From the NCBI GenBank assembly GCA_021108075.1, contig JAIORP010000150.1:3396-67395 (forward strand): a stretch of 64,000 nucleotides of DNA, in the 5' to 3' direction. Positions 13,521-48,913 of the stretch are shown piece after piece. The translations under genes and the position numbers were made by a program. This DNA comes from Candidatus Omnitrophota bacterium (lineage in GTDB: Bacteria; Omnitrophota; Gorgyraeia; Zapsychrales; Zapsychraceae). Each line of letters starts with the position of its first letter. Positions within the stretch are counted from its first letter, which is position 1. Under the pieces are notes generated by a model. That model was not told the DNA's origin, ran no database searches, and worked only from the letters and a program-made list of their open reading frames with translations.

Positions 13521-13525
13521 TACTT

Positions 13526-30868: not shown

Positions 30869-30891
30869 CCTCCGAAAATTCCGCGAATCAA

Positions 30892-31326: not shown

Positions 31327-31395
31327 AAAACATTATGCTGTTGATTGTGCCACAGCTTGTGGCACTTTTAGTCAATCTCTTTCCAAAATTGCCGC

Positions 31396-31635
31396 TCATT
31401 CCAAATCAGGAATGTCTTCACGAGAAAGCAAGAGCCGGATTGACCGTGCCTTTCCTGGCGTTTGCTCGATGAATCCGATTTTGATTAAAGACTGTATCAT
31501 CCTCTGCACAGCACCCCATTCCATTTTGAAATATCGCTCCATATCAACGCGTGCAGGAGGAACTCCATGAATCTTCTCATAATAATAAATAAACGCAAGA
31601 TACTGCCCTTGCTTTTGCGTGAAACATTTTCTCAT
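31396..31635 (-). CDS. Small hypothetical protein (possible winged-helix)
   Basis: 79 aa. Third gene of a contiguous minus-strand operon. GFIEQTPGKARSIRL resembles a wing/recognition helix. Confidence 0.3.
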   Translation of the reverse strand: MRKCFTQKQGQYLAFIYYYEKIHGVPPARVDMERYFKMEWGAVQRMIQSLIKIGFIEQTPGKARSIRLLLSREDIPDLE

Positions 31636-31648
31636 TATTTACAGCCCC

Positions 31649-31894
31649 TTAATTTCCATAAACCTCAGATTCTTCATCTGTTTGTATATCTATGTATTCC
31701 CACATTTCATTCTGATGAAGCCACACAGGATCAGCATTATTACGGACAAATTCATCAACAGGTATGCCATCAATCGTCTCCAGACGTTTAACTCGTTTTT
31801 GTTTCCCATTAATGAAAATAGTCATGTATTTCTTTTGCCGTTCCTTTTTTATTTGCTTCTCCTCAGTCATCAACTTTTGTTTAAGATTTCCCAT
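31649..31894 (-). CDS. Small hypothetical protein
   Basis: 81 aa, tightly spaced within the operon. Confidence 0.25.
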   Translation of the reverse strand: MGNLKQKLMTEEKQIKKERQKKYMTIFINGKQKRVKRLETIDGIPVDEFVRNNADPVWLHQNEMWEYIDIQTDEESEVYGN

Positions 31895-31897
31895 TAT

Positions 31898-32173
31898 TTA
31901 TTCCTTAATCTTTTCCGACTTGCCATACCTTTTATCCATATAATCCGTCATTTCCTGAATCACTGCCTGACCGTCTATCTGGTCAGAATTCGGCTCATAA
32001 GAAAAACACAAAAAAACATCCTCATCCTGATCATTCCTGTTTAGATTACAAAGAATTTCCTGTTTAGGATCAACATCCTTTTTACAGGTCGCACACAAGC
32101 TGGGCTTCGGCACTATGCCCGGATTAAATGGCGTGCCATCATCATTAAAATACCCATGCATTTCTTCACTCAT
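31898..32173 (-). CDS. Small hypothetical protein
   Basis: 91 aa. Its start overlaps the stop of the helicase gene by 4 bp. Confidence 0.3.
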   Translation of the reverse strand: MSEEMHGYFNDDGTPFNPGIVPKPSLCATCKKDVDPKQEILCNLNRNDQDEDVFLCFSYEPNSDQIDGQAVIQEMTDYMDKRYGKSEKIKE

Positions 32174-34260
32174 TCTTTTCCTCCAATGGTTTCATTGACG
32201 GAACAACCCATCGCCTTATATGTCTTTAACCGCCTTTGATACATGCTGGCCAAAACCGGGACTTTATGATCGACGTAATCATAAATTCGAACCTCACTTT
32301 TTCCATGATACTCCCGATGTAACCGGCCAGAATATTGGACAATCTTTCCTTTGAAAGAAATTGGCATTGTTAGAAACAAAGTATCCAAACGAGAATCATC
32401 AAATCCTTCTCCAATATAAGCCCCCGTTGCTAATAAAGCCTTTCGATGACCATTGGAGTCATCTTTAAACTCCTCCAATATTTCTTTTCTTTTTTTGGCC
32501 TTCAGACCGCCGTGGAAGATAGCCAAATGATCAATATGATTCTTAAGAGCTTCCGCTAGAAATTCAAGATGATTTTTTCGTTCCGTGAGAATAATTGGAA
32601 ATCGCCCATCTTCGATCGCCTTAAGAATATCTGCTATGATCATTTGATTCCTCTGGCTATTCTCAACTAACTTCGGCCAGACTTCATGAATCTTAGAGTC
32701 CTCAGTCCACTTACAGGTAAATTCAGTACTGCGTGACACAACTAAAAATTCGGAAATATGCTGATTAACGTCCTTCTGCCTAATTCTGGCAACAACCGGA
32801 CCGCATTGCATGTGAATAATGGGTTGGTGACCATCACGTCTATAAGGTGTTGCTGTTAATCCAAGCACATATTTTGACTTTGATTGCATCATAACTCGTT
32901 CAAAGGAAACTGCCCCAATGTGATGACATTCATCAACAATAATAAAACCATATTCTGCAATCCGATCATCAACAACGCCCTTGCGTTCCATACTTTGGAT
33001 CATCGCAATATCAATAACGCCAAAAGACTTGTCTTTCCCCGATCCGATTTGCCCTATCTCTTTAACATCAATTCCCAAAAAAGCGGCTATTTGTAATCTC
33101 CATTGCTCCATCAACGGTTTTCTGTGAACAAGGACAAGAACATTAGTTTTCCGTTTCGCTATCATATGAATAGCAAGGACCGTTTTCCCAACGCCAGGTG
33201 GAGCTACTAAAATACCAACATCCTTCTTATTCAATTTTCTTGCGGCTTTTTTCTGCTCATCCGTTAGAGTGCCCACAAAATTAAATTTTTTCTTCTTCCC
33301 AAAAAATTTCTTATCATCGACATCCACGTCAATACCATATTCTTCTAAGATAGAATAAACATCATCCAGACACCCTCGTGGTAAAGCTAAATAATCATCA
33401 ACTATTTCAGAACAGCATATAATCCTTGGTGTCGCATGTGTGGAAAACCGCATACTCTGACGCCGGTAAAATTCCGGGTTATGAAACGCAGCCAAACGTT
33501 TTAGTTGATTTAATAAAACAGCTGGCACATCGTTGGTATTGATATAAATACAATTGGCAATAACCAAATTCAATGAATCCGGAAGATCAGATATTTTCGC
33601 TTTGTATTGTGTTTTACTTGAGGGAAGCCTCATCCAAGGGGAATCTTTCTCATCTTGAGGGCTATTTCTAATACCTTCCATTTGGCTCTGTTCAGATGAA
33701 CCTTTGGTGATTATTTCAATTTCACGATACGACATTTTTCTTATTGATGCCAGAAACTGCCATTGATTCTCGCAAGGATTACCTTTATCATCAATAAACA
33801 CACTATTGTCACATCTTCTGGCCTGCCTTTGCAACGGCAGGGCAATCAGATTGCCAAACCCACCTTTCGGCAATGTGTCCTGATTCGGAAATAGACGATC
33901 ATAGCTTTTCATATCAAGTTGATAATAATTAGACATTGTCTTTGTAAGTAGCATACTTCCGAGCTTTCTTGCCATAGAAGCAGGGATTTCATCATTAAAA
34001 AAGATCCAGGCATGAGCTCCATTGCCAGACTGCGACCTTTCAATAGCAACCGGAACATTCTGAGCATCACATGTGTTTTTAAAGGCCATAACATCATTCA
34101 TCCATTCTTCTTTATCAAAGTCAGCAGCAAGGAAAAAACAATGTTCATTTGTCAACATCGGATAGACGCCAATAACACATTGTCCTTCCAGATGATTAAT
34201 CATAACTTCTTCACTTACGGGGACAAATTCGCGGCTGGGGAACAACATGAAAAGAATCAT
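32170..34260 (-). CDS. AEP-type primase-polymerase domain fused to an SF2 DEAD/DEAH-like helicase
   Basis: N-terminal AEP motif I (FLAADFDKEE) and motif III (SGNGAHAWIFF). The helicase part has Walker A VAPPGVGKT, the DEcH box IIVDECHHIG, motif III GLTATPYRRDG and motif VI QYSGRLHR. Confidence 0.6.
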   Translation of the reverse strand: MILFMLFPSREFVPVSEEVMINHLEGQCVIGVYPMLTNEHCFFLAADFDKEEWMNDVMAFKNTCDAQNVPVAIERSQSGNGAHAWIFFNDEIPASMARKLGSMLLTKTMSNYYQLDMKSYDRLFPNQDTLPKGGFGNLIALPLQRQARRCDNSVFIDDKGNPCENQWQFLASIRKMSYREIEIITKGSSEQSQMEGIRNSPQDEKDSPWMRLPSSKTQYKAKISDLPDSLNLVIANCIYINTNDVPAVLLNQLKRLAAFHNPEFYRRQSMRFSTHATPRIICCSEIVDDYLALPRGCLDDVYSILEEYGIDVDVDDKKFFGKKKKFNFVGTLTDEQKKAARKLNKKDVGILVAPPGVGKTVLAIHMIAKRKTNVLVLVHRKPLMEQWRLQIAAFLGIDVKEIGQIGSGKDKSFGVIDIAMIQSMERKGVVDDRIAEYGFIIVDECHHIGAVSFERVMMQSKSKYVLGLTATPYRRDGHQPIIHMQCGPVVARIRQKDVNQHISEFLVVSRSTEFTCKWTEDSKIHEVWPKLVENSQRNQMIIADILKAIEDGRFPIILTERKNHLEFLAEALKNHIDHLAIFHGGLKAKKRKEILEEFKDDSNGHRKALLATGAYIGEGFDDSRLDTLFLTMPISFKGKIVQYSGRLHREYHGKSEVRIYDYVDHKVPVLASMYQRRLKTYKAMGCSVNETIGGKE

Positions 34261-34373
34261 CAGTGGGCGAGTTATTTAATTCAAATAATAATTTTTCTTT
34301 GAGTTCACTAAGAATTCCTATTTGTGATTCAACATTCTTTAGTTTCTCTAAAACTTTTTTTCGTGACTGCGAC

Positions 34374-35067
34374 TTATGCATCGATTAAAATTTCCCAATG
34401 TCCACCCTTATCGGGTCCCACACGTTTTATCACTTCCTTTTTCCTTAAACTTTCAATATGTTTTTGAACGGCTGAAGGGTTAATTTTAAGTTTCTCTGAT
34501 AACTCTTTCCTTGATATATCAAGCTTTTGCTGAATGAACCTAACAACCTCACTTTGACGCTCCGTTAACTCTGACCACCTTTTCTGACCACCTTCTGACC
34601 ACCTTCTGACCACCTTTTTCACCCCCCTTTTCTACCCCCCTGGCTTTTAACCCCATTCTCTCCTCATAACTCTGCTTCTGAAGATCAGGACGGACAAACG
34701 TCACGGTGAACCAGTTCTCGTCGGCTTCAATCTTCGAGGCTGGCAGACGGTAATCCTTCATAGACTGCTTAATACGCAGGATACCGGAGCCCGCCTTTTC
34801 AACAAGATCCATTCTCTGTAATAGGCCAAAAAGCAGAACATTGCGAGGCATACTTTTTTTACCCAAATCGGACATCCTCATTCCAGACACCAGACCGCCA
34901 GGGCTGACAAACTCAACTCGGTCGGAATAAATATACACCTGAATATTTCCTGTCAGAAAATAATTACGGTGCCCCATCGCATTCAAAAGAGCCTCACGAA
35001 GAGCATCTTCAGGTAACTCTAAAACCTCTTCTCTCGGACCGCCTTTGATGATGTATTCCGTATTCAA
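34374..35067 (-). pseudogene. RecG-C-terminal-like HATPase_c_4 + winged-HTH regulator. It is frameshifted inside an 11-bp tandem repeat and truncated at the 5' end by the IS3 element.
   Basis: ORF 34549..35067 holds the HATPase_c_4-like core. ORF 34374..34622 holds the C-terminal wHTH. The two frames meet in the repeat tract (CTGACCACCTT)x4 at 34562-34610, which encodes (K)VVRRWSE in both frames. The expected N-terminal AlbA_2-like domain is absent; the IS3 element ends 40 bp upstream. Confidence 0.5.
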
Positions 35068-35106: not shown

Positions 35107-36196
35107 TTAAGGCAATTTAAGGTGGGGGCTTTTTGGGGGCGAAAATTTAAGCCCCGAGTAAACTTCCCACGGTGTTTGATATTCCAGAGACTGATGTAAA
35201 CGATCGGTGTTGTAAAAATTAAAAAAATCTTTCAATCCGTGTTTCACGTCAGTTATTGTACGATATTCATGAACATAAATGTTATCATATTTCACCGTTC
35301 GCCACAGCCGCTCAATAAAAATATTGTCAAAAACTCGTCCACGGCCATCCATACTGATTCGGATATTGTTCGATAACAATTTTTGAGTGAATTCGTTTGA
35401 CGTAAACTGAACGCCCTGATCCGAATTAAATATGCCCGGACGCCCGTAATCAAAAGCTTCTTCAACACATTCCACGCAAAAATCAGCTTCCAGCGTATTG
35501 CTCAGACGCCATGACAGAACATAACGGCTGTACCAGTCCATAACAGCCACCAGATAACAAAATCCTTTCGCAAGCTGAATGTACGTGATATCAGTGCACC
35601 AGACCTGATTCGCCCGAACAATGTCCAATCCCTTTAACAAATATGGATATATCCGATGCTCTGGATGTCTCTTGCTTAACTTTGGCTTCGGATAGATCGC
35701 CAAAAGATTCATCGTGCGCATCAATCGGCGAACAAGCTTCTCACCGACTTTGTATCCAAGTCGACGTAAATTCTGCATCATCTTAAACACCCCGCAGGCT
35801 TCCTTCATGAATCGCAGATCAATCTCTTTGCGTAATTGATCCTCAGACTCAATGTTTTTCTGGCGATGTTGATAATACAAATTCGAACGGTTAAATCCTA
35901 ATAATTCACATTGCCGTCGGATACTAATATCCGGGTTATCCTTCTCAATGAACAGGTATCGCTGATCCCGGCTTATAATCCGAGATTTTTTTTAACCAGG
36001 CATTCTCAACCTGCATTCGCCCGATCTCTTTGTACAAATTGTCTATTTTCCGTTCCGCATCCGGCTCACGCTCATTTTTTCGGATGAAAATATTGGAAAT
36101 ATTTTCTTTCAACTGCTTTTTCCATTTGGTAATCATATTGCTGTGGACTTTATATTCAGAACTGATCTCTGCAATCCATCTCGCGGCTCGATACAT
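35107..36196 (-). mobile_element. IS3-family insertion sequence (orfA/orfB with an A-run frameshift site)
   Basis: OrfB 35107..35880 has an rve DDE integrase core (WCTDITYI..., DQG..., E in RLWRTVKYD). OrfA 35945..36196 has an HTH and leucine zipper. The A8 slippery run at 35985-35992 on the minus strand lies between them. The OrfA N-terminus looks about 20 aa short, so the element may be slightly degenerate. Confidence 0.8.
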
Positions 36197-36504: not shown

Positions 36505-36520
36505 TGGCACGTTATTTGCT
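36505..36520 (+). promoter_or_regulatory. Sigma-54 (-24/-12) promoter upstream of the sugar-transferase/PEP-CTERM genes
   Basis: TGGCACG-TTAT-TTGCT has exact GG-N10-GC spacing. It lies 39 bp upstream of the 36559 start codon. A sigma-54-dependent regulator is encoded at 47516..48913. Confidence 0.5.
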
Positions 36521-36558
36521 TATAGTAAAGTAAGAATTTAAATTAAAAAACGCTTTCT

Positions 36559-37407
36559 ATGAAAAAAATGAAATATATTAAAAAGATACAGCTAACATTA
36601 ATTATTCTTGGATTCGCAATTCTTTCGATTTCAACCATGGCTTTGGCATCAATTCCAATCATTGAGCCAGAGAATGCGGAATTGACATTAAATATCCAGG
36701 ATGAAGAAATCATTCCTACTAATTTGCCGCAGGAAAAGAAGACCAAGGCTCCAGAGCCTGCAACCATCTTTTTGTTTGGCAGTGGTTTTATTGGCATGGT
36801 CATGAGTTTTGTCCGTAAGACCTATGCCGCAATTAAAAAGGTCTTAGATTTTATTTTTTCTGTTTTTCTTTTCATCGCCATCTCACCGCTCATGCTTTTA
36901 CTCGCGTTGCTTGTTAAACTGACATCACGAGGTTCGGTTATTTACTCACAGATTCGAGTGGGTAAAGATGGTAAATTATTCAAAATATTTAAGTTTCGTT
37001 CCATGAAAGTCGATGCCGAAAAGAATTCCGGTCCGGTTTGGGCTGCTGAAAATGATAACCGATTAACCCCTGTTGGTGGCTTTTTGCGCAAATCACATCT
37101 TGATGAATTGCCACAGTTATTTAATGTTTTAAGGGGAGAGATGAGCATCATTGGTCCACGTCCGGAAAGACCAAAGTTTGTTGATGAATTTAAGCAAGCT
37201 ATACCTGATTATGAAAAAAGATTAAGAGTTCAACCAGGCATTACAGGATTAGCTCAAGTTTGGCATCGATATGACGAAACCATGGACGATGTTAAGAAAA
37301 AATTAAAATACGACCTTTTATATATCAAAAAGATGTGCTTGTGGGCTGATTTTAACATTATGCTGCGCACCGTTCGAGTTGTCATTACGGGCGAAGGAGC
37401 CAGATAA
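36559..37407 (+). CDS. Priming sugar transferase (Bac_transf/WbaP C-terminal type) with an in-frame N-terminal signal peptide plus PEP-CTERM-like unit
   Basis: Residues 93-282 hold the Bac_transf domain (LDFIFSVFLFIAISPLMLLLALLVKLTSRGSVIYSQIRVGKDGKLFKIFKFRSM ... IIGPRPERP). Residues 1-92 hold a signal peptide, a linker, then APEPATIFLFGSGFIGMVMSFVRK (PEP motif, TM helix, basic tail). Confidence 0.75.
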   Translation: MKKMKYIKKIQLTLIILGFAILSISTMALASIPIIEPENAELTLNIQDEEIIPTNLPQEKKTKAPEPATIFLFGSGFIGMVMSFVRKTYAAIKKVLDFIFSVFLFIAISPLMLLLALLVKLTSRGSVIYSQIRVGKDGKLFKIFKFRSMKVDAEKNSGPVWAAENDNRLTPVGGFLRKSHLDELPQLFNVLRGEMSIIGPRPERPKFVDEFKQAIPDYEKRLRVQPGITGLAQVWHRYDETMDDVKKKLKYDLLYIKKMCLWADFNIMLRTVRVVITGEGAR

Positions 37408-37519: not shown

Positions 37520-38365
37520 ATGAAAAAATTGCTGATTACAGCTATTATTCTGACCTTTGGCATCGTACCATCAGCACACGCTTTTTCTTTAGGCGGGTAC
37601 ACAGGCTCAGTTACGTTTGACTTTATAAACTACGATGTAGGTACTACTTACAATGCAAATACAAACATCGTTAACGGAGCTGACGGTCAGGGTGACAGTT
37701 ACGGTATTATAAAGAATTTTACAATTATTGATCCTAACACAGCGCAACCATTGTGGCAATCATCCGCTAATGAATCGATTGAAGGTGTGTTTTATGGTAT
37801 CGATGACAACAACGTGAGCATCAACCCTGATTATAGTGGAACAATTGATTCAATTGGTGGTTTCTTAGATCTATATCTATCGACTTCTAATTTGAATCCT
37901 GTTGGCGGTACTGCGCCTGCCGTTCCATTAGCCGACTTGAATAATCCATATGCCGCGGGTACAGATCCATGGAATGCCAGTGACGGAACGCTTTTCTTAA
38001 GATTAGCATTCGTTCCCGGCGCTTCAATCGTTGATCCAACATCAACATATCATCAAACTATTGATTCTATGGCGAATCCTGTTCGTGGTGAAGGTAGTGG
38101 TTATTTAATGGTTGTTGGTGGTCAATATGCTTCAATGTTTGATTCAAACCAATTTGATAGCTTTTCTTCTGGTGCGGATTTCTACTTCTCAAATGATTTT
38201 GACGCGAGAGGATTAACACCGGCACAAATTGCAGCAGGTTGGTTAGTTTTTAGTGATGGTAAAGCATTAGGTTATGCTGTTCCAGAACCAGCTACTATGG
38301 CTCTTTTGGGTAGTGGTTTATTCGGTTTAGTTGGTGCTGCCATTAGAAAGAAAAAATTAGCTTAA
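37520..38365 (+). CDS. PEP-CTERM sorting-domain protein (secreted exosortase substrate)
   Basis: Signal peptide. A Gly/Asn/Ser/Thr-rich body. The C-terminal sequence VPEPATMALLGSGLFGLVGAAIRKKKLA is a canonical PEP-CTERM. A strong RBS AAAGGAGGG precedes the gene. Confidence 0.85.
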   Translation: MKKLLITAIILTFGIVPSAHAFSLGGYTGSVTFDFINYDVGTTYNANTNIVNGADGQGDSYGIIKNFTIIDPNTAQPLWQSSANESIEGVFYGIDDNNVSINPDYSGTIDSIGGFLDLYLSTSNLNPVGGTAPAVPLADLNNPYAAGTDPWNASDGTLFLRLAFVPGASIVDPTSTYHQTIDSMANPVRGEGSGYLMVVGGQYASMFDSNQFDSFSSGADFYFSNDFDARGLTPAQIAAGWLVFSDGKALGYAVPEPATMALLGSGLFGLVGAAIRKKKLA

Positions 38366-38869: not shown

Positions 38870-40333
38870 TCAGATATATTTGAATTTGCGTTCGTAATCC
38901 AATTCCATTCCATATGGAAAGTCTTGATAGTGGAAGATTTTAATCGGGATGTCCATTTCAATGTAACGTAATAAGGCATGCGCGATTTTTATTTTAAATT
39001 CCCAGGTTAACTTGATATTCTTTTTTAATTGAATTTCAATGAGAGGTTTATCCCGCTTTTGACTGAGGCGGAAATTACCTGTTGTGCTTATGGCCACCTC
39101 AAAGTCTGTAAAAAGACCTTCAGATATTTGCTGGGGGTAAATCCTTTTGCCGTTGAAGAGCAAATAATCATCTTTACCGTACATGATGACCAGCGGGGAT
39201 TTAAATGGAGGCAGGAGATGATTTCTATCAAAATCTTTAAGGATTTTGTTTAGTTCTGAATAAGGGATGATGTGGCCTTTATCTTTGGTGTTGTAGCGGA
39301 TCAAGGGGAGTCGTAAGGCTGAGGTTAAGCTCGTGATAATGATGTCTTGATTTTTTTCTTCCAGGAAGAATGCTTGGGGGAAATAATTAAAGAACATGGG
39401 GATGTACGGATACCGGTCATAAAGCAGGTGTTCTTTTAAGGACGGGTTTTGTAGCGTGAGCTGCCTGAGCCGAACGGTCTCCGGGCTTTCAAAAAACAGA
39501 TTTAATCCGAACTCTGAAATGCCCATAGACGAAAAGATCGAGCCATTATGTCGGTTGTGTTGATTGATTTCAAGGATGTTTGTTAGATGCGTACGGAGTT
39601 TTTCCGGTAAGTACGCGCCACCTACGATAATATGGATTTTGAGTTTGCCCAATGGGATGTTTTTTTTAAGGGCCGCTTCAAGTGCGTTTTTGATGAAATA
39701 GTTGTCACCGATAATAATAATTTGTGAGAATTTTGACGCCAGTGTTTGCAATATGTATAGCAAGGAATCAATGCGGGGCCCGGTCTCGACAACAGCCGCT
39801 GTATCGATCATCGGGAGTTTGACCGATTGTGATAGACAGTTGATGATCAGTGAGGATTCATCAAGAATGTTAAAATAATAATCAAGGATAACTTCAATGA
39901 ATTGATTGTTTTTTTTGATTTCTTTTGGGGTGCTGATCCCAAAAGAAAACGTTCCTGTCGATCCAGATGAGAGCAAGATGGATTGAATATGATTTTGATT
40001 GGCTTTTAAAAAGATGTTTTCATTGACGCTTTCTTCGGAATGGAAGATAGAGTGTTTATCAATGACCGGCACTGAAGATTTGAACGCGGCAATATCATCA
40101 ATGTTCTTACCTGAAACATTTTTGGATTGTAAATAATTTTGATAAAGTTCAACATTCTCCGCGGCACGTTTAAATACTTTTAAGGCTTTTTGTTGGGATC
40201 TCGCGATCACCTCATAGGGGGCCATATCCTGGCAACTATGGATCACGTAATTGTATTTTGATTTTTTTATCTTATTTTTTAATGAAAGCATGATCCCTCC
40301 ATTCGCTATACCTTTTTGTTCATATGATACCAC
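38870..40333 (-). CDS. Adenylate-forming enzyme of the phenylacetate-CoA ligase (PaaK/CapK/F390-synthetase) family
   Basis: AMP-binding P-loop LSSGSTGTFSFG and a PaaK-like length of 487 aa. Such genes are common in capsule/EPS loci. Confidence 0.55.
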   Translation of the reverse strand: MVSYEQKGIANGGIMLSLKNKIKKSKYNYVIHSCQDMAPYEVIARSQQKALKVFKRAAENVELYQNYLQSKNVSGKNIDDIAAFKSSVPVIDKHSIFHSEESVNENIFLKANQNHIQSILLSSGSTGTFSFGISTPKEIKKNNQFIEVILDYYFNILDESSLIINCLSQSVKLPMIDTAAVVETGPRIDSLLYILQTLASKFSQIIIIGDNYFIKNALEAALKKNIPLGKLKIHIIVGGAYLPEKLRTHLTNILEINQHNRHNGSIFSSMGISEFGLNLFFESPETVRLRQLTLQNPSLKEHLLYDRYPYIPMFFNYFPQAFFLEEKNQDIIITSLTSALRLPLIRYNTKDKGHIIPYSELNKILKDFDRNHLLPPFKSPLVIMYGKDDYLLFNGKRIYPQQISEGLFTDFEVAISTTGNFRLSQKRDKPLIEIQLKKNIKLTWEFKIKIAHALLRYIEMDIPIKIFHYQDFPYGMELDYERKFKYI

Positions 40334-40628
40334 GCGTCCCCTATTTATTTATAATATTATATATAAAATATAGGGACACAACAATTTTTTCTTTATGTTT
40401 TTTGCGATCGTGTTGCGAAGTGTGAGTTTGTCTGGCAGGTCTTGATGCATCATTATTATGTTATACCGATCACTAAATTAACTATAATAATAAAATTAAT
40501 ACATATAGAACTTAATAGTTTTAGGGTCATGTCCTCGAGTGAAATTCCCTATCTTCTTGATTGACAGTTATTTTGAGGTATGTTAACATATTTTCACATT
40601 TATTGTTGGTCGATGAATTTCGGGGAAT

Positions 40629-40772
40629 ATACCAATTCCATTAAATAATTGCCAAAAAATTCTCATCGGTTTTTGCGAATGCTTTTACGCAAATAGCGAG
40701 GAGAAATCAGAAGAATTATTTATTGGATTTGGTCTCGCTATTTGTTCAATTATTTAACGCAATTGGTATTAT
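40629..40772. repeat. MITE family A copy, 144 bp, full TIR pair. It ends 3 bp before the acyltransferase ATG.
   Basis: Left TIR ATACCAATTCCATTAAATAATTG at 40629-40651. Right TIR CAATTATTTAACGCAATTGGTATTAT at 40747-40772. Confidence 0.6.
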
Positions 40773-40774
40773 CT

Positions 40775-41458
40775 ATGGAAACATTCACATTTCAGAAAGT
40801 TGATTTTGACGATAAAGAGTTGATGCAGCAAATATACCAGTTGCGTTTTCGGGTGTATTGCTATGAATGTGGCTTTATTAACGAAGCGGATTATCCTGAT
40901 CAAATTGAACGTGATGAATACGACCCGCAATCCGTGCATTTTGCCGCATTGAATGAACATCAAGAAGTGATTGGAACGATGCGTCTTATTTTAAATGGCG
41001 ATCTGTTCATGCCATTGGAACATCATTGCAAAGATATCCGTATTGATCAAGGTGATGTCCCCCGCGATAAAATAGCCGAGATCTCACGCCTGGTCATCAG
41101 CAAGGACTTAAGAAGACGTAAAAAGGATGAGCTTTATTATGAGCCGCAAGTCTCAGATGAATCGGTCAAGAACAAGGAAAACCATGTTTTTTTACGACGA
41201 GCGAAGCCGATGGCCTTTGGTCTCTATCGTGAAGTTTACCGTGAAAGCTTAATGCGGGATATTATTCATTGGTATGCCTTAATGGAAAAAAGTTTGTGGC
41301 TACTGCTGCATATTCATGGCTTTACGTTTGACGCTGTTGGCGCAGAAGTCGATGTGTATGGTCCTGTTAAGCCTTACTTGGGGCGTGTTGATAAAATAAA
41401 AGAAGAGGTTAAGAAGAAGTTTCCAGGATTTTTTGACTACTTTGCTGAAGGTGCGTAG
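40775..41458 (+). CDS. PEP-CTERM/exosortase-system-associated N-acyltransferase (FeeM/autoinducer-synthase-like GNAT; N-acyl amino acid synthase family)
   Basis: METFTFQKVDFDD...LRFRVYCYECGFINE...GTMRLILNG...EISRLVISKD is the hallmark layout of the exosortase-associated acyltransferase family. I chose the ATG at 40775; the track's TTG start at 40742 lies inside the MITE. Confidence 0.65.
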   Translation: METFTFQKVDFDDKELMQQIYQLRFRVYCYECGFINEADYPDQIERDEYDPQSVHFAALNEHQEVIGTMRLILNGDLFMPLEHHCKDIRIDQGDVPRDKIAEISRLVISKDLRRRKKDELYYEPQVSDESVKNKENHVFLRRAKPMAFGLYREVYRESLMRDIIHWYALMEKSLWLLLHIHGFTFDAVGAEVDVYGPVKPYLGRVDKIKEEVKKKFPGFFDYFAEGA

Positions 41459-41508
41459 GTTTATTTTTTCGTTTTTCTCGAGGAAGAATTAAACTTGTTT
41501 GGGCAAAA

Positions 41509-44286
41509 ATGACATTCTTTAGAAGAATGCGGCCGGTTATGAAAATAGAAACGATTGTCTCCAATATTTATTCTGCCTTCACGCAAGTGGCTGGTACGTA
41601 TCCAACCACTCCAGCAATTTTGTTTAAAGACGACCATCGCTGGCAATCCATATCTTACCGGGAGCTTCATGGGCGAAGCAAAAAATTTGCGCAGTATTTA
41701 AAGAATCATTATGATATCAAGCCTGGTGATAAAGTTGGCGTCATGCTGGATAACCAATCCCAATATGCCGAGCAATTCTTTGGAACAATCGCTGCGTCCG
41801 GTGTTATTGTTGCCTTAGATGTCCAATACCCTAATCAGCAAGTCCGTGATATTTTAATGCATGCCGAGGCGAAGTTCTTAATCACTTCCTGTGACCATTA
41901 TCAGCGCGTAAGAAATGAATTGCCCCATCACCTTAAGGTGATACTTATCGATGATAAAGAGACCTGCCGTAAGGTCGCGGCTGAACCGGACAAAGACGTT
42001 TCGATGTCACATCCGGCGACGAGCACGTCATTAGCTGTTTTGTTTTATACTTCAGGGACAACGGAAGACCCGAAGGGTGTCATGTTGTCGCATGCTAATT
42101 TGCTGTCGAACATTGGGGCTATTGAAACGATAAAGATTGTCAAACACAATGATGTCGTGATTTCCATGTTGCCGCTTCATCATGCCTATGCGTTGACCAC
42201 GACGCTTTTAACTCCGCTATTGGTTGGCGCAACAGTCGCTTATCCTTCAGAAATTAATTCCGTGGAACTTCTCGCAACAATGCGGGATACACGCGCGAAT
42301 ATTTTTGTCGGAGTTCCGCAGGTTTTTTCTTTGATCTACCGCTCCGTGAATGATAAATTGGCCAAAGTTAAGGGTGCTAAAAAATTGTTGATTTCCGTAT
42401 TAGGAGGGCTGTTTTATCTTTTACGAAAATACACGGGGATTAATTTGAGCCGTTTGCTTTTTGCCGAAATGCATAAAACTTTTGGTAAAAGTTTGCGCTT
42501 CATGGTCTCCGGCGGCGCGAAGTTAGATAAGGAAGTAGGGTTAGGATTTTACCGTTGGGGATTTACTATTTTGGAAGGTTATGGTTTGACGGAAACGTCA
42601 CCCGTCGCTTCGTTTAACCTGCCGTCCAAATTTAAGATCGGTTCGGTTGGAACACCTCTGCCGAATGTGCAAATTGAGATACATCATCCGAATGAAGAGG
42701 GGATCGGCGAGGTCGCGATAAAAGGTCCGAATGTCATGCAGGGTTATTATCAAGCTGAAGAAAAAACCAAAGAGGTTATTCGGGACGGTTGGTTTTTTAG
42801 CGGAGATTTAGGCTATATTGACCAGGACGGATATGTTTTCTTAACCGGGCGGAAAAAGGAGATGATTGTATTAAGTTCAGGTAAAAATATTTATCCTGAA
42901 GAAGTGGAACACGCGTATATGAAGAGTCCGTATATTAAAGAGGTGGGCGTGCTGCAGGTCAAAGGCTCTGGCGTACTTGAGCATGTTGATCAACTTGTCG
43001 CGCTCATTGTGCCGTATGATGATTACTTTAAAGTGAAGAACGAGGGGAATTTACGTGACCGGCTTACATATGAAATTGATACGGTTTCTGCCGGTTTGCC
43101 AAGTTATAAGGCGATTAAGGGTTTTGTTGTATCCTCTGAACCTTTGCCGCGGACGCGTTTGGGTAAGTTGATGCGATATAAATTGTTTGGGGTTTATGAT
43201 AATCTTCAAAAGAAGCAACGTCCCCGGAGGGATCCAGAATCCACATCTTTAACCGGCCGTGGTGAGACTGCGGGCGCGGAATCGGCACTGGTTCAGGCTG
43301 CTTTGCTGTATTTAGAAGAAACGCTGAATAAGAAAGTTCACATGAATGATCATTTAGAATTGGATCTGGGGCTTGATTCATTAGGGCGCATCGAGATCCT
43401 TTTGGGGTTGCAGGGTAAATTGAATCTTGAGTTGGATGATGATGCGTCCATGAATTTTTACATGTGCAATACGGTCCAGGAGTTAGCGGATAAACTACAG
43501 AAGATCGTGCCGAATGGTTCCGCTGATCATGCATCAAATGATACGGATACGATTGGCCCGCAAGAGACCTGGTCGATGATGTTAACTGAAGAAGTGCCGC
43601 AAGAGATAAGGGCGCGTATTAAGTTTGAACAGAATATTTTTTCTAAGGCTTTTGCCCTCATGCTTGTTTTGCTGATTAAGTTGACGTTTAAATTGTTTTT
43701 TAGGTTGAAAGTTGAAGGCCGCGAAAATTTATCAGATGATAAACCTTTTATCATTTGTCCGAATCATTCCAGTTATTTGGATGCGTTGATCCTGATCGCC
43801 GCATTACCGTTAAAGATATTGTTTAAAACTTATTTTTTAGGTCTGAAAGAAGTACTGGATGAGATTTTTTTGGGGTCGTTCTTCACGGTGCTGCATATCA
43901 TCCCGATTGAAAGGAATTATGGGTTAGTGAATTCTTTAAAACTTTGTGCTTATGTCGTGAAGAATCAACGGTTGTTATGTTTTTTTCCTGAGGGCGAGCG
44001 TTCAGTCGATGGGGAGGTTAAGGCCTTCAAGAAAGGGATTGGTATTTTAATGCGTGAAATGTCTTCAGCGGTTGTGCCCGCGCATATTGCCGGGGCATTT
44101 GAAGCCTGGCCGAGGTATCGTAAATGGCCTCGATTTGTTCCGATTGAAATTAGATTTGGTGAAATGATTAAGCCGGATGAGATCGAGACAGCCTCGGACG
44201 AGGGTCGAGACGCTTATGACGTTATTGCTCAGCATATCCGCCTTGCCGTCATGGCATTGGCCGATGGCGGCAAGGCGAAAGCCTAA
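41509..44286 (+). CDS. Tri-domain protein: fatty acyl-AMP/CoA ligase, acyl-carrier (phosphopantetheine) domain and PlsC-type lysophospholipid acyltransferase
   Basis: AMP-binding motifs (YTSGTTEDPKG, GYGLTETS, GDLGYIDQDGY, GRKKEMI). A carrier-protein serine motif LDLGLDSLGRIE. A C-terminal LPLAT motif ICPNHSSYLDALI (HxxxxD) and FPEGERS. Confidence 0.75.
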   Translation: MTFFRRMRPVMKIETIVSNIYSAFTQVAGTYPTTPAILFKDDHRWQSISYRELHGRSKKFAQYLKNHYDIKPGDKVGVMLDNQSQYAEQFFGTIAASGVIVALDVQYPNQQVRDILMHAEAKFLITSCDHYQRVRNELPHHLKVILIDDKETCRKVAAEPDKDVSMSHPATSTSLAVLFYTSGTTEDPKGVMLSHANLLSNIGAIETIKIVKHNDVVISMLPLHHAYALTTTLLTPLLVGATVAYPSEINSVELLATMRDTRANIFVGVPQVFSLIYRSVNDKLAKVKGAKKLLISVLGGLFYLLRKYTGINLSRLLFAEMHKTFGKSLRFMVSGGAKLDKEVGLGFYRWGFTILEGYGLTETSPVASFNLPSKFKIGSVGTPLPNVQIEIHHPNEEGIGEVAIKGPNVMQGYYQAEEKTKEVIRDGWFFSGDLGYIDQDGYVFLTGRKKEMIVLSSGKNIYPEEVEHAYMKSPYIKEVGVLQVKGSGVLEHVDQLVALIVPYDDYFKVKNEGNLRDRLTYEIDTVSAGLPSYKAIKGFVVSSEPLPRTRLGKLMRYKLFGVYDNLQKKQRPRRDPESTSLTGRGETAGAESALVQAALLYLEETLNKKVHMNDHLELDLGLDSLGRIEILLGLQGKLNLELDDDASMNFYMCNTVQELADKLQKIVPNGSADHASNDTDTIGPQETWSMMLTEEVPQEIRARIKFEQNIFSKAFALMLVLLIKLTFKLFFRLKVEGRENLSDDKPFIICPNHSSYLDALILIAALPLKILFKTYFLGLKEVLDEIFLGSFFTVLHIIPIERNYGLVNSLKLCAYVVKNQRLLCFFPEGERSVDGEVKAFKKGIGILMREMSSAVVPAHIAGAFEAWPRYRKWPRFVPIEIRFGEMIKPDEIETASDEGRDAYDVIAQHIRLAVMALADGGKAKA

Positions 44287-44440: not shown

Positions 44441-45319
44441 ATGAAGAAAAAAAAGTCATCCAATAAGCGTTTAATCCCTGTTTTACGTACAGCTTTGTTC
44501 TCCGTGTTTTCGCATAAAGAAATTTTCTGTCCCTTCCTGATTGTTGCCCTCGTTCAAGTTTTGTTCATCAGTGTTCTTTGTTTCTTGCCGCGGTATCCCC
44601 TGGTTAATTTCTTTGGTCCCATGATAGAGAAATTGCATGGTGACTTGTATTCGCATTATCCTTATTATTTAGAAGTTATGCCTAAGATTTTTCAAAAAAT
44701 TCAATATGGTGTTTTTATTCTTCTGAGCAGTTTAATGATCGGGTTTGCGATTAAAAATATTGCGGACTTAAATCAAGATATTGAAGTGAACCCGGGTAAA
44801 AATTTTCTTTATGCCCTTTCCCGATATGTTCATTTGCTGATGGGAAGTGTTATCCTTTTTACGATTTTCTTTTATGGCATGAGGCCCTTAGTTGGTATTC
44901 TTGTTGCCCGCGCGACAGAAATCCGGTCAACCTCGGGTCTATTTTACTATCTGAAAATGATTGTCCTCAGAGGGGCTTCGTTCTACATGTTGTTTCTGGG
45001 TGTTGTGACCACATCTGTTTTCGGCTTTTTGTATCCTTTGATTATTCTTGAAAAAAAGAATGTCTTTGTTGCTTTTTTTATAAACTTAAAGCGTATGTGG
45101 GGATCCTACTGGTTCGTTTTTTTTGTTGTTTTAACACCGTCCATTCTTTATGTGCCCCTTCTTCTGATACGTAATAATGTGACTGAGGTTGCGACAACCA
45201 TATTGCCTGAAATTCGGATTATTATGCTGTTTGCTAGCGTTATCCTGATATTCCTTATTGATTCAATTATATATACATCAATAACAACCTATTATTTATT
45301 AAAGAAAGAAAATTTATGA
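44441..45319 (+). CDS. Hypothetical polytopic membrane protein
   Basis: 292 aa, about 7 TM helices, no recognised motif. Confidence 0.4.
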   Translation: MKKKKSSNKRLIPVLRTALFSVFSHKEIFCPFLIVALVQVLFISVLCFLPRYPLVNFFGPMIEKLHGDLYSHYPYYLEVMPKIFQKIQYGVFILLSSLMIGFAIKNIADLNQDIEVNPGKNFLYALSRYVHLLMGSVILFTIFFYGMRPLVGILVARATEIRSTSGLFYYLKMIVLRGASFYMLFLGVVTTSVFGFLYPLIILEKKNVFVAFFINLKRMWGSYWFVFFVVLTPSILYVPLLLIRNNVTEVATTILPEIRIIMLFASVILIFLIDSIIYTSITTYYLLKKENL

Positions 45320-46218
45320 AAAAGACTATTTTATTTCTTATTATTTTGATTATCGGTGTGTATGTTTCTTTGAGTTTTTTGGCGAAAAATGATGATTATG
45401 CCATCGAAAAAATACTGTGGGGGCTGAATAATGAAATCATTGACCTCGCCAAAGACCCTAAAGCTGTGCCGCCGGATCAATTTGACAGTGTGATCGAACG
45501 TTGCCGGAAAGTCATTGCTGAATATCCCGATTCAAAGATTATTTTGAAGCCATATCTTGATGTGGCACGCCTATACACGCTTAAGGAGGATTATGCGACA
45601 TCCCGCATTGAGTATGCCAGAGCGATTGATAATTTTGAGGAGAATCACGAAGTTGTCGCCGGCATTATGTCATCAATTGGCAGGACTTATGAAATGGAAG
45701 AGAATTGGAAATCTGCCAATGAGGTCTATCAAAGAATAATAAAAGATTATTCCGGTACGCGTGTAGGTTTGAATATGCCACTTTATATTGCGTATCATTA
45801 TCGTCAATTAAACGATTACACCCATACTGTCGAGTCATTTCAAGCTGCCATCAACCATTATCGTTCATTAATAAATAAACATCCTGATACCCTTCTGGCG
45901 TTTAGATCTTACAACAATTTAGCCAGGACGTACCTTGATCAGATGCGTTGGGAAGATGGTTTAAAGGTCTATGGGGAGATATTAACTGTGTATGCCGTAC
46001 CTAAAAAGATACCAGCACAGCGTGCCCAAAATATTATAAAAACGATGAATACCATTTCAGCTGCTAAATTAAAAAATTTTAATATCGTGACTGAAATTTT
46101 TAATCAAATTATGATTGAAAATCCTGATCATGAAATGACAAAATATTTGAATATCCTTGTTCAATCCTTGGGTGAACTAGAAAAAAAAGCTGCTGAGGCT
46201 GCAAGTAAAAAGAAATGA
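45316..46218 (+). CDS. Signal-anchored TPR-like helical-repeat protein, function unknown
   Basis: N-terminal TM helix, then repeated roughly 34-aa Tyr/Ala-rich helical units. It overlaps its neighbours by 4 bp and so is co-transcribed with the kinase. Confidence 0.4.
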   Translation: MKKTILFLIILIIGVYVSLSFLAKNDDYAIEKILWGLNNEIIDLAKDPKAVPPDQFDSVIERCRKVIAEYPDSKIILKPYLDVARLYTLKEDYATSRIEYARAIDNFEENHEVVAGIMSSIGRTYEMEENWKSANEVYQRIIKDYSGTRVGLNMPLYIAYHYRQLNDYTHTVESFQAAINHYRSLINKHPDTLLAFRSYNNLARTYLDQMRWEDGLKVYGEILTVYAVPKKIPAQRAQNIIKTMNTISAAKLKNFNIVTEIFNQIMIENPDHEMTKYLNILVQSLGELEKKAAEAASKKK

Positions 46219-47510
46219 ATTCTTCAGATGATAACACAATATTTCAAGGGATTACCCAAATCTCTCTTTTTAGCCAGATTAGCGACATTTGTGCTGCCGT
46301 TAATGTTGTCACTTCAGAAGAAGAGCTTCTTCAGGTATCTTTACACAAAACAGTGGAACTGTTTCAAGCCACCCGTGGTTCAATTTTTATCTTAAATGAA
46401 GCGAGCAATAACCTTGTCCTTAAAGTCGCTGAAGGAATGGAACGAGAAGAAGAAGAACAGATGGTTAAAAAGATGGGGGAAGGTATCGTCGGTGTCGTTG
46501 CCCTGTCCAAGAAACCCATTTTTGTGACCGACATCGCAAAAGATGAACGATTTGAAAATTTTAAATCAAGAAGCAGTTATACGACACCTTCATTTATTTG
46601 TTCGCCCTTAATGGTGAAAGATTCGTTAATCGGGGTGATTAATATTGCTGACAAGGAAGGGGGACAACTATTCAAGAAACATGAAATGATGTTGCTTGAT
46701 TTTTTGTCTAGTCAGATCGCCCTTAATTTTAGACGGACAATTCTTTATCAAGACTTTAATAAAGTATTGCAAGAGACTATAAACTTAAAAGATAAGCTTG
46801 GTCAAAGCGACCAGGAAGCAGAACATTTAAAGAAACAGATATCCATTCAGGAAAAGTTTGCCTCTATTGGTAAACTAGCCGGTGGAATAGCGCATGAATT
46901 CAATAATCCATTGGATGGAGTGATGCGCTACACAAACTTATGTTTAGATCACATCAAAGATGATGAAGTCGTTCGTGGGTATTTATTAGAAATTAAACAT
47001 GGATTAAACCGGATGGCAAACATTGTCAAGAATCTTCTGGCCTGTTCCCGCAACGTTGCTGTTCAGAGTGAGAAAATAGATTTTAATCTAGCATTAGAAA
47101 GATCGCTCAGCAGCATTGATCCTGAATGCATGAAAAATAATATTTCGGTCGTAAAAGAAATTCAGGAAAATATGCTCTCCATCAAGAATTTCGGGCTAGA
47201 ACGAATCATTATCAACCTTATTCGCAACGCGATTGATGCGATGAAATCAGGGGGGAAAATTATTATTTCAGCATGGCAAAATCAAAACACGTTAAAATTT
47301 TCTGTCTCGGATCAGGGCTCGGGCATCGCGTATGACAATATTGATAAAATATTTGATCCGTTTTTTACAACCAAAGACATTGATAAGGGTTGCGGGTTAG
47401 GGTTGACGGTCGTCGGTGAGATCGTTAAGGCATACGATGGCAAGATCGATGTCGAAAGTCAACCTGAAAAAGGAACGACATTTACTATTACCTTGCCTTA
47501 TAAGGATTAA
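46215..47510 (+). CDS. Cytoplasmic GAF-domain sensor histidine kinase (PrsK-like partner of the sigma-54 regulator)
   Basis: GAF domain, then the H-box HEFNNPL, then the HATPase_c N/G boxes (NLIRNAIDAM, DQGSGI, GLGL). Confidence 0.75.
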   Translation: MNSSDDNTIFQGITQISLFSQISDICAAVNVVTSEEELLQVSLHKTVELFQATRGSIFILNEASNNLVLKVAEGMEREEEEQMVKKMGEGIVGVVALSKKPIFVTDIAKDERFENFKSRSSYTTPSFICSPLMVKDSLIGVINIADKEGGQLFKKHEMMLLDFLSSQIALNFRRTILYQDFNKVLQETINLKDKLGQSDQEAEHLKKQISIQEKFASIGKLAGGIAHEFNNPLDGVMRYTNLCLDHIKDDEVVRGYLLEIKHGLNRMANIVKNLLACSRNVAVQSEKIDFNLALERSLSSIDPECMKNNISVVKEIQENMLSIKNFGLERIIINLIRNAIDAMKSGGKIIISAWQNQNTLKFSVSDQGSGIAYDNIDKIFDPFFTTKDIDKGCGLGLTVVGEIVKAYDGKIDVESQPEKGTTFTITLPYKD

Positions 47511-47515
47511 CAGCT

Positions 47516-48913
47516 ATGACAATGTCTAAGAAAGATGTCAGCATATTAATCGTTGATGATGAACCACTCATTCGTGAGTCTTTATATGAGATCCTTCGGA
47601 TTGATGGATATTGTGTCCAAATGGCATCCACCGCCGAGGAAGCTTTGCAAACATTGGAAAGAGGGAAAATTGATATTATCGTCACTGATTTTAAACTTCC
47701 TAAAATGAGTGGGATGGAGTTGTTGGAGCAAATTAAAACAGCAGACAGTTCAGTCGATATTATTATGATGACAGGGTATGGCTCGATAGAGATGGCGGTC
47801 GACGCCATGAAAAAAGGAGCCTACGACTACATTACTAAGCCCATTAATGATAGCGAAATAAAAATTATTATTAATAAAATTGTTGAGAAGAAAAAAATTC
47901 TTCGAGAGAATCAGACCCTTAAGGAAATTATTGCTAAAGAACATCCTGTCTCTTTTGGCGGGATGATTGGCGCGAGTGAGAGCATGCGGCAAGTTTACAA
48001 TATTATCGAGTCTGTCGCAAGCACAAACGCCACGATCTTAGTTTCCGGTGAAAGTGGAACGGGTAAGGGCCTCGTTGCCAGGGCGATTCATGACAATGAT
48101 AAATACCGTAAGGACAGACCGTTTGTAGAAATAAGTTGTGGGGCCCTCTCAGAAACTTTGTTGGAAAGCGAATTGTTCGGACACATGAAGGGGGCCTTTA
48201 CCGGCGCGATTAAAGATAAGGAAGGCCGTTTTGAATACGCGCGCAGTGGAACTATTTTTTTAGATGAAATTGATGCGTTTTCTCCTAATTTGCAGGTCAA
48301 ATTGTTGAGGGTTTTGCAGGACGGCATCTTCGAACGCGTTGGGGATAATATCACCCGCAAAGCAGATGCCCGTATTATTGTCGCAACAAACCAATTTTTA
48401 CCCGATTTAGTTGAAGAGGGCGCGTTCCGTGAAGACTTATATTACCGCATCAATGTCATTGCCATTCGTATGCCTCCCTTGCGACAAAGAAAAGATGATA
48501 TTGAATCGTTGGTCTCACACTTTATTAAAAAGTATAGTTCCGCAAACAATAAAAAGGTTCTTAACCTGTCTGAACAAGTTCTGGGTTTGTTTAAGCAGTA
48601 CAATTGGCCAGGTAATATCCGTGAATTAGAGAACGCCATTGAGGGGGCTGTTATCATGGCAAAGACGGAAGTTGTCAATAAGTGGGATATTCCCCACCTG
48701 TCCAAGTTTAAAAGCCTTGGGAAAAAACCATCAGATGATAAAAACTTAAAAAAAGTCGTTGAACAACCAGAGCGAGATCACATCGTTTCAATATTAGAAG
48801 AGTGTGATTGGAACCGTAGCAAAGCCGCCACAGCTTTAGGTATTAATCGAACAACATTGTATAACAAAATGAAAAAATACGGTATAACCGAAAAAAGATC
48901 GAGGGGCTTATGA
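47516..48913 (+). CDS. Sigma-54-dependent response regulator (NtrC family; PrsR-like)
   Basis: REC domain (DDE...D in DFKLPKMSG). AAA+ sigma-54 activator domain with GESGTGKG, the GAFTGA motif and ESELFGH. C-terminal Fis-type HTH ALGINRTTLYNKMKKYGI. Confidence 0.85.
   Translation: MTMSKKDVSILIVDDEPLIRESLYEILRIDGYCVQMASTAEEALQTLERGKIDIIVTDFKLPKMSGMELLEQIKTADSSVDIIMMTGYGSIEMAVDAMKKGAYDYITKPINDSEIKIIINKIVEKKKILRENQTLKEIIAKEHPVSFGGMIGASESMRQVYNIIESVASTNATILVSGESGTGKGLVARAIHDNDKYRKDRPFVEISCGALSETLLESELFGHMKGAFTGAIKDKEGRFEYARSGTIFLDEIDAFSPNLQVKLLRVLQDGIFERVGDNITRKADARIIVATNQFLPDLVEEGAFREDLYYRINVIAIRMPPLRQRKDDIESLVSHFIKKYSSANNKKVLNLSEQVLGLFKQYNWPGNIRELENAIEGAVIMAKTEVVNKWDIPHLSKFKSLGKKPSDDKNLKKVVEQPERDHIVSILEECDWNRSKAATALGINRTTLYNKMKKYGITEKRSRGL

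Follow-up and report, generated by a model that had tools for sequence, protein, structure and literature searches.

In the 64,000-nucleotide stretch of Candidatus Omnitrophota DNA analysed here (contig JAIORP010000150.1 of GenBank assembly GCA_021108075.1; hereafter the window), the open reading frame (ORF) at 36559..37407 on the forward strand encodes a protein of 282 amino acids, in which a PEP-CTERM sorting module is followed by a monotopic phosphoglycosyl transferase (PGT) with no stop codon interrupting the frame. The fusion protein is genuine and evolutionarily fixed. On sequence evidence, and with moderate confidence, the PEP-CTERM module is taken to be a genuine exosortase recognition element and at the same time the membrane anchor of the PGT; it would dock the enzyme to exosortase and is probably cleaved. 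The parts of the gene are as follows:

36559..37407, + strand: fusion gene consisting of signal peptide, spacer, PEP-CTERM module and monotopic PGT (profile scores, homologues, identical assemblies).
36559..36648, + strand: predicted Sec-type signal peptide, residues 1-30 (basic n-region, hydrophobic core, A-x-A site ending at A30).
36649..36747, + strand: variable, net acidic, predicted periplasmic spacer of near-constant length, residues 31-63 (pN/pS 0.75; PEP position).
36748..36819, + strand: PEP-CTERM module APEPATIFLFGSGFIGMVMSFVRK, residues 64-87, with PEP motif, glycine-rich transmembrane (TM) helix and basic end (PF07589, TIGR02595, conservation).
36820..36933, + strand: conserved TYA junction and re-entrant PGT membrane helix (KKVLDF...ISPL...), residues 88-125 (invariant residues; PglC/WbaP alignment; modelled helix).
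36934..37404, + strand: predicted cytoplasmic catalytic domain of the monotopic PGT, residues 126-282, with the Asp-Glu dyad D182-E183 (PF02397; Foldseek).

The N-terminus reads MKKMKYIKK-IQLTLIILGFAILSISTMALA and closes with A-L-A at residue 30. A30 was kept in at least 90% of the homologues, and the family consensus at this site was AWA. The signal peptide was called by inspection (n/h/c layout and A-x-A), and its removal from the fusion protein would be expected from these features. Between S31 and A64, 7 acidic and 3 basic residues were counted, and the PEP motif started at a median position of 64 over 118 homologues, with common values of 59-68. Behind PEP lay an 18-residue glycine-rich hydrophobic stretch, then R86-K87 and K93-K94; KKVLDF... 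and the Bac_transf domain began seven residues past APEPATIFLFGSGFIGMVMSFVRK. The basic n-region, the acidic spacer and the basic residues behind the helix satisfied the positive-inside rule, a layout that would place the PEP motif at the periplasmic membrane face. The first-pass annotation of this DNA had described residues 1-92 as a complete miniature PEP-CTERM protein with a self-consistent topology. All of its parts (signal peptide, spacer, PEP, glycine-rich TM helix, basic patch) were present, and the charge distribution agreed with that topology.

More than 100 homologues of similar length (about 282 amino acids) were recovered in a database search; they were 57-72% identical over the full length and were labelled Candidatus Omnitrophota where named. 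They derived from many samples and sources, with the architecture uninterrupted and the spacing fixed. PF07589 and PF02397 were already assigned in the precomputed annotation of many of them, so the domain pair may be listed, uncommented, in architecture tables. An identical protein was already recorded from a Candidatus Omnitrophota metagenome-assembled genome (MAG). Across the ORF and the sequence on either side of it, the independent assemblies L033, L034 and L035, all three made from other samples, matched the window with 0 mismatches. No stop codon separated the PEP part from the transferase in 120 homologues.

In a 30-sequence alignment, P65, E66, P67, T69 and G74 were invariant. PEPx[T/S] was kept in 118 of 120 homologues, the other two having SEP, and the distance from PEP to KFRxM was exactly 80 residues in 114 of the 120. 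Synonymous sites were saturated (pS ~0.75), and every Pro and Glu codon was used at P65, E66 and P67. The ratio of nonsynonymous to synonymous differences (pN/pS) was 0.26 in the PEP module, 0.20 in the catalytic domain, 0.39 in the re-entrant helix, 0.72 in the signal peptide and 0.75 in the spacer. The PEP module is under purifying selection about as strong as that on the catalytic domain. The invariant motif, the fixed spacing, the varying codons and the family-wide profile matches indicate that the module is translated and selected as protein.

The in-frame fusion without a stop, as first proposed from the window alone, was thus upheld by the open frame, by conservation throughout the family and by purifying selection, and the homologue search recovered the same fusion. 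The first-pass annotation had also allowed that this region might prove to be an ordinary TM helix without PEP; this failed in the close family, and a few remote relatives did have degenerate PEA, QPA or SPA motifs. An artefact, either a stop or frameshift lost between two genes or a chance PEP in an ordinary TM helix, might be suspected from the marginal profile scores (20.8 vs 20.7 and 16.6 vs 16 bits) and from the insertion sequence (IS) element and assembly break just upstream. Its probability is close to nil. A missed stop or frameshift is ruled out by the three independent assemblies, identical across the ORF, and by more than 100 homologues with the same unbroken architecture and fixed spacing. 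A chance motif is ruled out by the invariance of PEP while codons vary, by selection at the codon level and by the profile matches of 89 of 90 relatives.

The PEP module scored 20.8 bits against PF07589 in the whole protein and 23.2 bits in residues 1-92 (gathering score 20.7). The corresponding scores against TIGR02595 were 16.6 and 18.9 bits (cutoff 16). PF07589 was matched at E<=0.01 by 89 of 90 family members. The further marks of PEP-CTERM proteins found here were PEP followed by a TM stretch and a basic cluster, a signal peptide, and co-occurrence with exosortase. In a six-frame motif scan of the window, the only second convincing PEP-CTERM module belonged to the next gene, as its C-terminal tail at 38282:

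37520..38365, + strand: free-standing PEP-CTERM protein of 281 aa with the C-terminal tail VPEPATMALLGSGLFGLVGAAIRKKKLA (PF07589 30.5 bits; TIGR02595 23.7 bits).

The fused module closely resembled this true C-terminal tail, and in every locus it was similar to the true PEP-CTERM tails of the adjoining genes.

The enzyme part was matched by PF02397 (Bac_transf) over residues 93-276 with 226 bits. An alignment to exosortase-associated sugar transferases had been proposed, and its outcome was mixed. The score against TIGR03025 (EPS_sugtrans) was 313.4 bits, above the cutoff of 295.55, with profile positions 191-445 alone matched. The score against TIGR03013 (the XrtA/PEP-CTERM sugar transferase, EpsB_2) was 273.1 bits, under the cutoff of 393.35, and membership of that family was rejected. 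Y89, K93, D97, P110 (of S109-P110), D182 and E183 were invariant in the 30-sequence alignment. Foldseek matched the model to PglC (8e37, E 3.7e-13) and WbaP (8t53, E 8e-11). By phmmer, residues 83-281 aligned with WbaP 322-527 (1.3e-34) and residues 92-280 with PglC 10-189. The AlphaFold2 model, with a mean predicted local distance difference test score (pLDDT) of 77.8, had a helix at 2-30, disorder at 36-70 (pLDDT <50), a helix at 69-122 and a compact core; it was uninformative on the spacer, and by drawing 69-122 as one long helix it left the packing of the PEP and re-entrant helices unresolved. The fold match, the Asp-Glu dyad and the invariant P110 of Ser-Pro indicate a monotopic PGT core of the small type, to which a sorting module has been added. 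Small monotopic PGTs consist of the catalytic core alone, and here 92 residues precede it. From sequence and model, the catalytic part is an intact monotopic PGT.

The loci of relatives tie the fusion gene to exosortase. In four relatives whose neighbouring genes were annotated with Pfam, the gene order was glycosyltransferases, Exosortase_EpsH, EpsI, fusion gene and PEP-CTERM protein. In L002 and L004 it continued on one strand with an unknown protein of ~288 aa, a TPR protein, a GAF kinase and a sigma-54 regulator. By tblastn, exosortase and EpsI were found directly upstream of the fusion gene in 14 of 15 locus entries, equal to 12 of 13 distinct loci (L005 repeats L002; the pair in L006 stands nearly 2 kb upstream). 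In the exception, L010, the upstream sequence spans just 2.3 kb. A PEP-CTERM protein gene came next after the fusion gene in all the related loci inspected, and in the 12 distinct loci the exosortase, EpsI, fusion and PEP-CTERM genes stood on one strand. The exosortase-EpsI pair was 4 kb upstream in the closest relative (72% identical), and exosortase was 4-7 kb upstream of the fusion gene in L036 and L038.

In the window, the position held by exosortase-EpsI in relatives is occupied by an IS3 element, and the only exosortase/EpsI pair lies 27 kb from the fusion gene, where it ends a second glycosyltransferase cluster:

35945-36196 and 35107-35880, - strand: putative IS3-type transposase ORFs (two-ORF layout and translations).
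8282-9157, - strand: exosortase (TIGR02602 170 bits, cutoff 105.55).
7555-8292, - strand: EpsI (TIGR02914 51.8 bits, cutoff 42.8).

Neither exosortase nor EpsI nor a remnant of them was found near the fusion gene by tblastn with the exosortase and EpsI proteins of four relatives. The window exosortase was 27-30% identical to the exosortases adjoining the fusion gene in relatives. Same-strain assemblies break within the IS3 element, at window positions 36091 and 35987. The element and the assembly breaks explain the missing syntenic exosortase.

A putative promoter lies ahead of the fusion gene, and genes of a regulatory block (45316..48913) lie downstream of it:

36505..36519, + strand: candidate sigma-54 type -24/-12 promoter TGGCACGTTATTTGC (consensus match; ~40 nt before the start codon).
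36547..36557, + strand: near-palindrome AAAACGCTTTC, consensus GAAAACGYTTTC, in the 5' leader between the sigma-54 element and the ATG.
45316-46218, + strand: TPR protein.
46215-47510, + strand: GAF histidine kinase (PrsK TIGR02916 96 bits).
47516-48913, + strand: sigma-54-dependent response regulator (TIGR02915 PEP_resp_reg 414.6 bits, cutoff 502.6).

TGGCAC-N5-TTGC had one exact match in the whole window, with 0.07 expected by chance. An equivalent element was found 31-90 nt before the predicted ATG in 14 of 15 related locus entries (13 of 14 distinct; L005 repeats L002). A sigma-54 promoter would fit the downstream sigma-54-dependent response regulator, GAF histidine kinase and TPR protein. 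The element precedes the full-length start, and therefore the whole N-terminal extension would lie inside the transcript. The near-palindrome, as GAAAACG(C/T)TTTC, was also found in the leaders of L001, L002, L003, L007, L013 and L014, where it may serve as a regulator site or form a small hairpin.

The position of the start bears on whether the ORF yields two products, with an internal start at Met80 or Met82 giving an ordinary small PGT and the upstream part serving as a separate PEP-CTERM peptide or leader. M80 was at least 90% conserved, free PEP-CTERM tails have Leu there, and a product beginning MVMSFVRKTYAAIKKVLDF would look like the N-terminus of PglC. However, such a start is improbable. 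The two parts were unseparated by a stop in 120 of 120 homologues, no Shine-Dalgarno-like sequence was evident before M80 in the window, and the long-form relatives P0147, P0156 and P0158 were without Met at that position. The sigma-54 element and the leader point to the upstream ATG, and a protein started at M80 would keep half a transmembrane helix.

Relatives with longer N-terminal parts were found with a profile of the region from PEP to the re-entrant helix, run against 1.84 billion representatives. There were 42 matches at E<=1e-10; among the 150 best, about 50 had PEP, the helix and a KRxxD junction. In distant relatives, cargo domains of 130-265 aa stood ahead of the PEP-PGT junction; PEP lay at residues 134-265 in the long forms P0162, P0209, P0158, P0133, P0147 and P0156. 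P0133 had a complete 'choice-of-anchor N' domain (NF038141, 53.8 bits, cutoff 40) ahead of its PEP module, and its locus also encodes exosortase, EpsI and two PEP-CTERM proteins. P0209, annotated 'sugar transferase [Elusimicrobiota bacterium]', has as neighbours a PEP-CTERM protein of 525 aa, TPR proteins, Wza and Wzc. To this free 525-aa protein of the Elusimicrobiota locus, the passenger of P0147 was 47% identical (E 3e-64) and that of P0156 40% identical (E 2e-49). The spacing between PEP and the KR at the re-entrant helix was 28 residues in the window protein and in P0147 alike, which points to one ancestral junction with exchangeable passengers.

The speculative step of the first-pass annotation, cleavage by exosortase with physical coupling to exopolysaccharide initiation, stays a hypothesis, much strengthened by exosortase-EpsI upstream in 12 of 13 distinct loci and by the exosortase cargo of the long forms. 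The passengers of the long forms are ordinary exosortase cargo, which argues that cleavage occurs. In the short form the spacer is conserved in length and not in sequence, which argues that interaction with, or processing by, exosortase matters on the enzyme side. Judging from these sequences, that role would be recruitment, licensing or stoichiometric coupling of exopolysaccharide (EPS) initiation to sorting.

The spread of the junction was sampled by a scan of genome contigs with one narrow peptide pattern, so that it is a lower bound: the matches comprised at least Omnitrophota MAGs, four MAGs under the label 'uncultured Planctomycetales' and, on a 13-kb contig, one under 'Lysobacterales'; the names outside Omnitrophota are database labels as given. 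Degenerate motifs with the helix kept were seen in the remote relatives P0163 (PEA), P0166 (QPA) and P0192 (SPA). The long-form fusions P0133, P0147, P0156, P0158, P0209, P0162, P0142 and P0144 have in common a basic insertion of 20-35 residues (e.g. ...NRRxxxxDRRK...) in the PGT domain, placed after the RVG motif and before K(F/L)R(T/S)M; it is missing from the short form of Omnitrophota.

The degenerate relatives bear on the possibility that the PEP-derived helix was kept as an uncut membrane anchor, or as a docking or regulatory element, acting as a pseudo-substrate of exosortase/EpsI or having no interaction with them. Retention of the helix in P0163, P0166 and P0192 despite the degenerate motif speaks for it, as does a short, poorly conserved spacer without a cargo-like domain. 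R86, T88 and Y89, just behind the helix, and M80 are, moreover, fusion-specific and highly conserved, suggesting a helix adapted to the enzyme. Nevertheless, a mere anchor needs no invariant P-E-P-x-T, no cleavable-looking signal peptide and no spacer of constant length, and the motif is constrained as much as the catalytic domain. True exosortase cargo in the longer relatives makes sense only if it is released, and exosortase-EpsI adjacency is nearly universal in the close family. An uncut helix is considered plausible but less likely than cleavage.

The preferred reading, an exosortase recognition element that also anchors the PGT, can be put as a sequence of predicted steps. The Sec signal peptide would export the N-terminus, and the spacer of ~34 residues would remain periplasmic. 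The PEP-CTERM helix would then span the membrane from outside to inside with its basic end in the cytoplasm. The PglC-like PGT, starting seven residues on, would make the first lipid-linked sugar of the exopolysaccharide of the exosortase locus. The helix would have a double role, as membrane anchor of the enzyme and as the handle recognised by exosortase (with EpsI). Through this handle the priming enzyme would most likely be recruited to exosortase and be cut at PEP on the periplasmic face, where a published model also places exosortase action (PMC1569441). The cut would free a short N-terminal peptide, or the cargo domain in longer relatives, and the transferase would stay anchored beside exosortase. 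Polysaccharide initiation and PEP-CTERM sorting would thereby be coupled in space and stoichiometry. The unit would be transcribed from the sigma-54 promoter, presumably under control of the downstream PrsK/PrsR-like two-component system. What the sequences show is the fusion with its conservation and selection, a layout compatible with this topology, the synteny with exosortase and the promoter consensus, while removal of the signal peptide, binding to exosortase, the cut at PEP and any change in enzyme activity are inferred.

A stronger form of the scheme is possible, if tentative: exosortase would use the PGT as a substrate, the cut at PEP would leave the PGT at exosortase as a functional 'leaving group', and EPS initiation would be licensed by sorting, localised to it or matched to it one for one. 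The lipid-linked glycan begun by the PGT might also be the acceptor to which exosortase transfers PEP-CTERM proteins.

Several observations weigh against docking and cleavage by exosortase. The single-sequence scores against the PEP-CTERM hidden Markov models barely exceeded their thresholds and are marginal. The basic patch (RK, with KK six residues on) is weaker than the typical RRRK. The C-terminal location of PEP-CTERM, which according to Haft et al. (PMC1569441) holds 'virtually without exception', is lacking in the fused module: 218 residues lie between PEP and the stop codon in every fusion member, compared with 23-27 in the neighbouring true PEP-CTERM proteins. A syntenic exosortase is absent from the window, the sole exosortase being the 27-30% identical paralogue 27 kb off, and in two remote loci, L037 and L040, exosortase was not found within ~10 kb of the fusion gene. 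For every fusion member, cleavage by signal peptidase or exosortase is something we infer from the sequence. The short Omnitrophota spacer is without obvious cargo function, and a cut would free a poorly conserved peptide. M80, at least 90% conserved within the helix, may permit an internal start of an ordinary small PGT.

A description of a PEP-CTERM-PGT fusion was not found in the literature searched, in which coverage of subscription journals was incomplete; this agrees with the earlier impression that the fusion had not been described. Both components, PEP-CTERM/exosortase and the monotopic PGTs, are already known. The published classes of monotopic PGT are small, large and bifunctional, and an N-terminal sorting-signal module is part of none of them (PMC11626204). 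The combination found here is outside that scheme.

The fusion was compared with four known systems. It shares with the PEP-CTERM/exosortase system (PMC1569441) the signal peptide, PEP, the glycine-rich TM helix and the basic cytoplasmic patch, and an EPS locus with exosortase, EpsI, TPR, histidine-kinase and sigma-54 regulator genes. The same layout of PEP-CTERM loci, with genes for TPR protein, histidine kinase and sigma-54 response regulator, was described by Haft et al. (2006, PMC1569441). The difference is that 195 enzyme residues follow the fused module and that the passenger of the Omnitrophota form is ~34 variable residues; what would be the discarded stub of a normal substrate appears to be a functional enzyme in the fusion. 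The PglC-type small PGTs (PF02397; 8e37, 8g1n) have the same re-entrant helix with a Ser-Pro break, Asp-Glu dyad and fold, and a core of ~190 residues as the sole catalytic domain, to which the fusion adds a cleavable-looking signal peptide, a periplasmic spacer and a true TM helix before the re-entrant helix. It takes the place that the large priming transferases (TIGR03013 EpsB_2; TIGR03025/WbaP/WcaJ; 8t53) have in EPS clusters linked to exosortase, that of the sugar-phosphate transferase which initiates synthesis. Unlike them, it is without the four-helix N-terminal bundle and the nucleotide-binding-like domain, and its link to exosortase lies in the polypeptide, beyond gene neighbourhood. 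The C-terminal signals of the sortase, archaeosortase and type IX secretion systems are similar in having a membrane-proximal motif, a TM helix and a basic tail, with a cut expected from a dedicated transpeptidase and the N-terminal part passed to a surface acceptor. Their C-terminal fragment is a short remnant without known function, whereas that of the fusion would be a glycan-priming enzyme.

To our knowledge, the tie between exosortase and exopolysaccharide has rested since 2006 solely on gene neighbourhood and phylogenetic profiles, and the target to which exosortase attaches its substrates, like the reason for the constant company of EPS genes, is a long-standing question. A natural fusion that has been conserved is 'Rosetta-stone' evidence that sorting and polysaccharide initiation meet physically at the membrane. 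If the PGT is indeed an exosortase substrate, this would be the first direct molecular link from exosortase to polysaccharide synthesis. The fusion is also a simple testable substrate, being a small protein of which both halves can be tagged and whose cognate exosortase and EpsI are adjacent in relatives. It adds a new architecture to the monotopic PGT superfamily, and it indicates that a PEP-CTERM module need not sit at the C-terminus to function, or at any rate to be maintained by selection.

A second kind of non-C-terminal PEP-CTERM module is provided by ORFs that look like PEP-CTERM 'polyproteins': P0129 (L039:96-7598; GCA_020427265.1, JAGQOS010000182.1), P0160, P0184, P0199, P0200 and P0206. 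They are single ORFs of 1000-2500 aa, made up of 4-10 units that are roughly 220-420 aa long. All internal units close with PEPST..LLGLGLVGLV.RRRR and pass directly into an Ala-rich signal-peptide-like stretch of the unit behind, and the last unit forms the protein end. The passengers of P0129 include Laminin_G_3 and F5_F8_type_C, and its frame is open in the deposited contig.

A further PEP-CTERM ORF, small and with the distinctive tail NPEPA(S/T)MLL.G.G.AAMAY..RK, recurs in many relatives downstream of the fusion gene; it is absent from the window. Its sites are L002:12123, L004:11858-12178 (106 aa), L007:7916, L008:8011, L009:10679, L011:7604, L014:6927 and L015:7001.

Another conserved gene stands just upstream of the TPR gene:

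44441..45319, + strand: conserved uncharacterised protein, 292 aa (tblastn homologues downstream of the fusion gene in relatives).

In 11 of the 15 entries L001-L015 (10 of 14 distinct; L005 repeats L002), a homologue of this protein is encoded downstream of the fusion gene, that of L002 (~288 aa) being at L002:12480-13343. Genes of similar size and position, matched by layout alone, are present at L037:13021-13863 (the Elusimicrobiota locus) and L038:11589-12458. The protein had no match in Pfam or NCBIfam. The N-terminus of the L002 homologue is strongly hydrophobic, and the protein is therefore probably membrane-embedded. It is a candidate for an unrecognised component of the PEP-CTERM system.

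Between the PEP-CTERM protein gene and the 292-aa gene, the window has an insertion relative to the other loci (38870-44286). It contains a PaaK-like ORF of 487 aa (- strand), an acyltransferase at 40742-41458 matching TIGR03694 (188 bits), the PEP-CTERM/exosortase system-associated acyltransferase, and a 925-aa AMP-binding and acyltransferase fusion at 41509-44286. This gene content suggests an N-acyl amino acid or lipid-modification module linked to the exosortase system.

The second EPS cluster (7555-25070, - strand) encodes GT4 glycosyltransferases, a WecB/TagA/CpsF-family transferase, an epimerase, a MATE-family (Wzx-like?) transporter and the terminal exosortase and EpsI. Its exosortase reaches the generic model alone and no named Xrt type (best XrtV, 178 bits vs 313). 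Beyond the IS3 element, a mobile/defence-type block at 25654-35067 includes an IS91 transposase (29369-30241), two AbiEi-like antitoxins and a primase-polymerase/helicase (32170-34260). Past the regulatory genes, a very large ORF of 3010 aa takes up 51067-60099 on the + strand.

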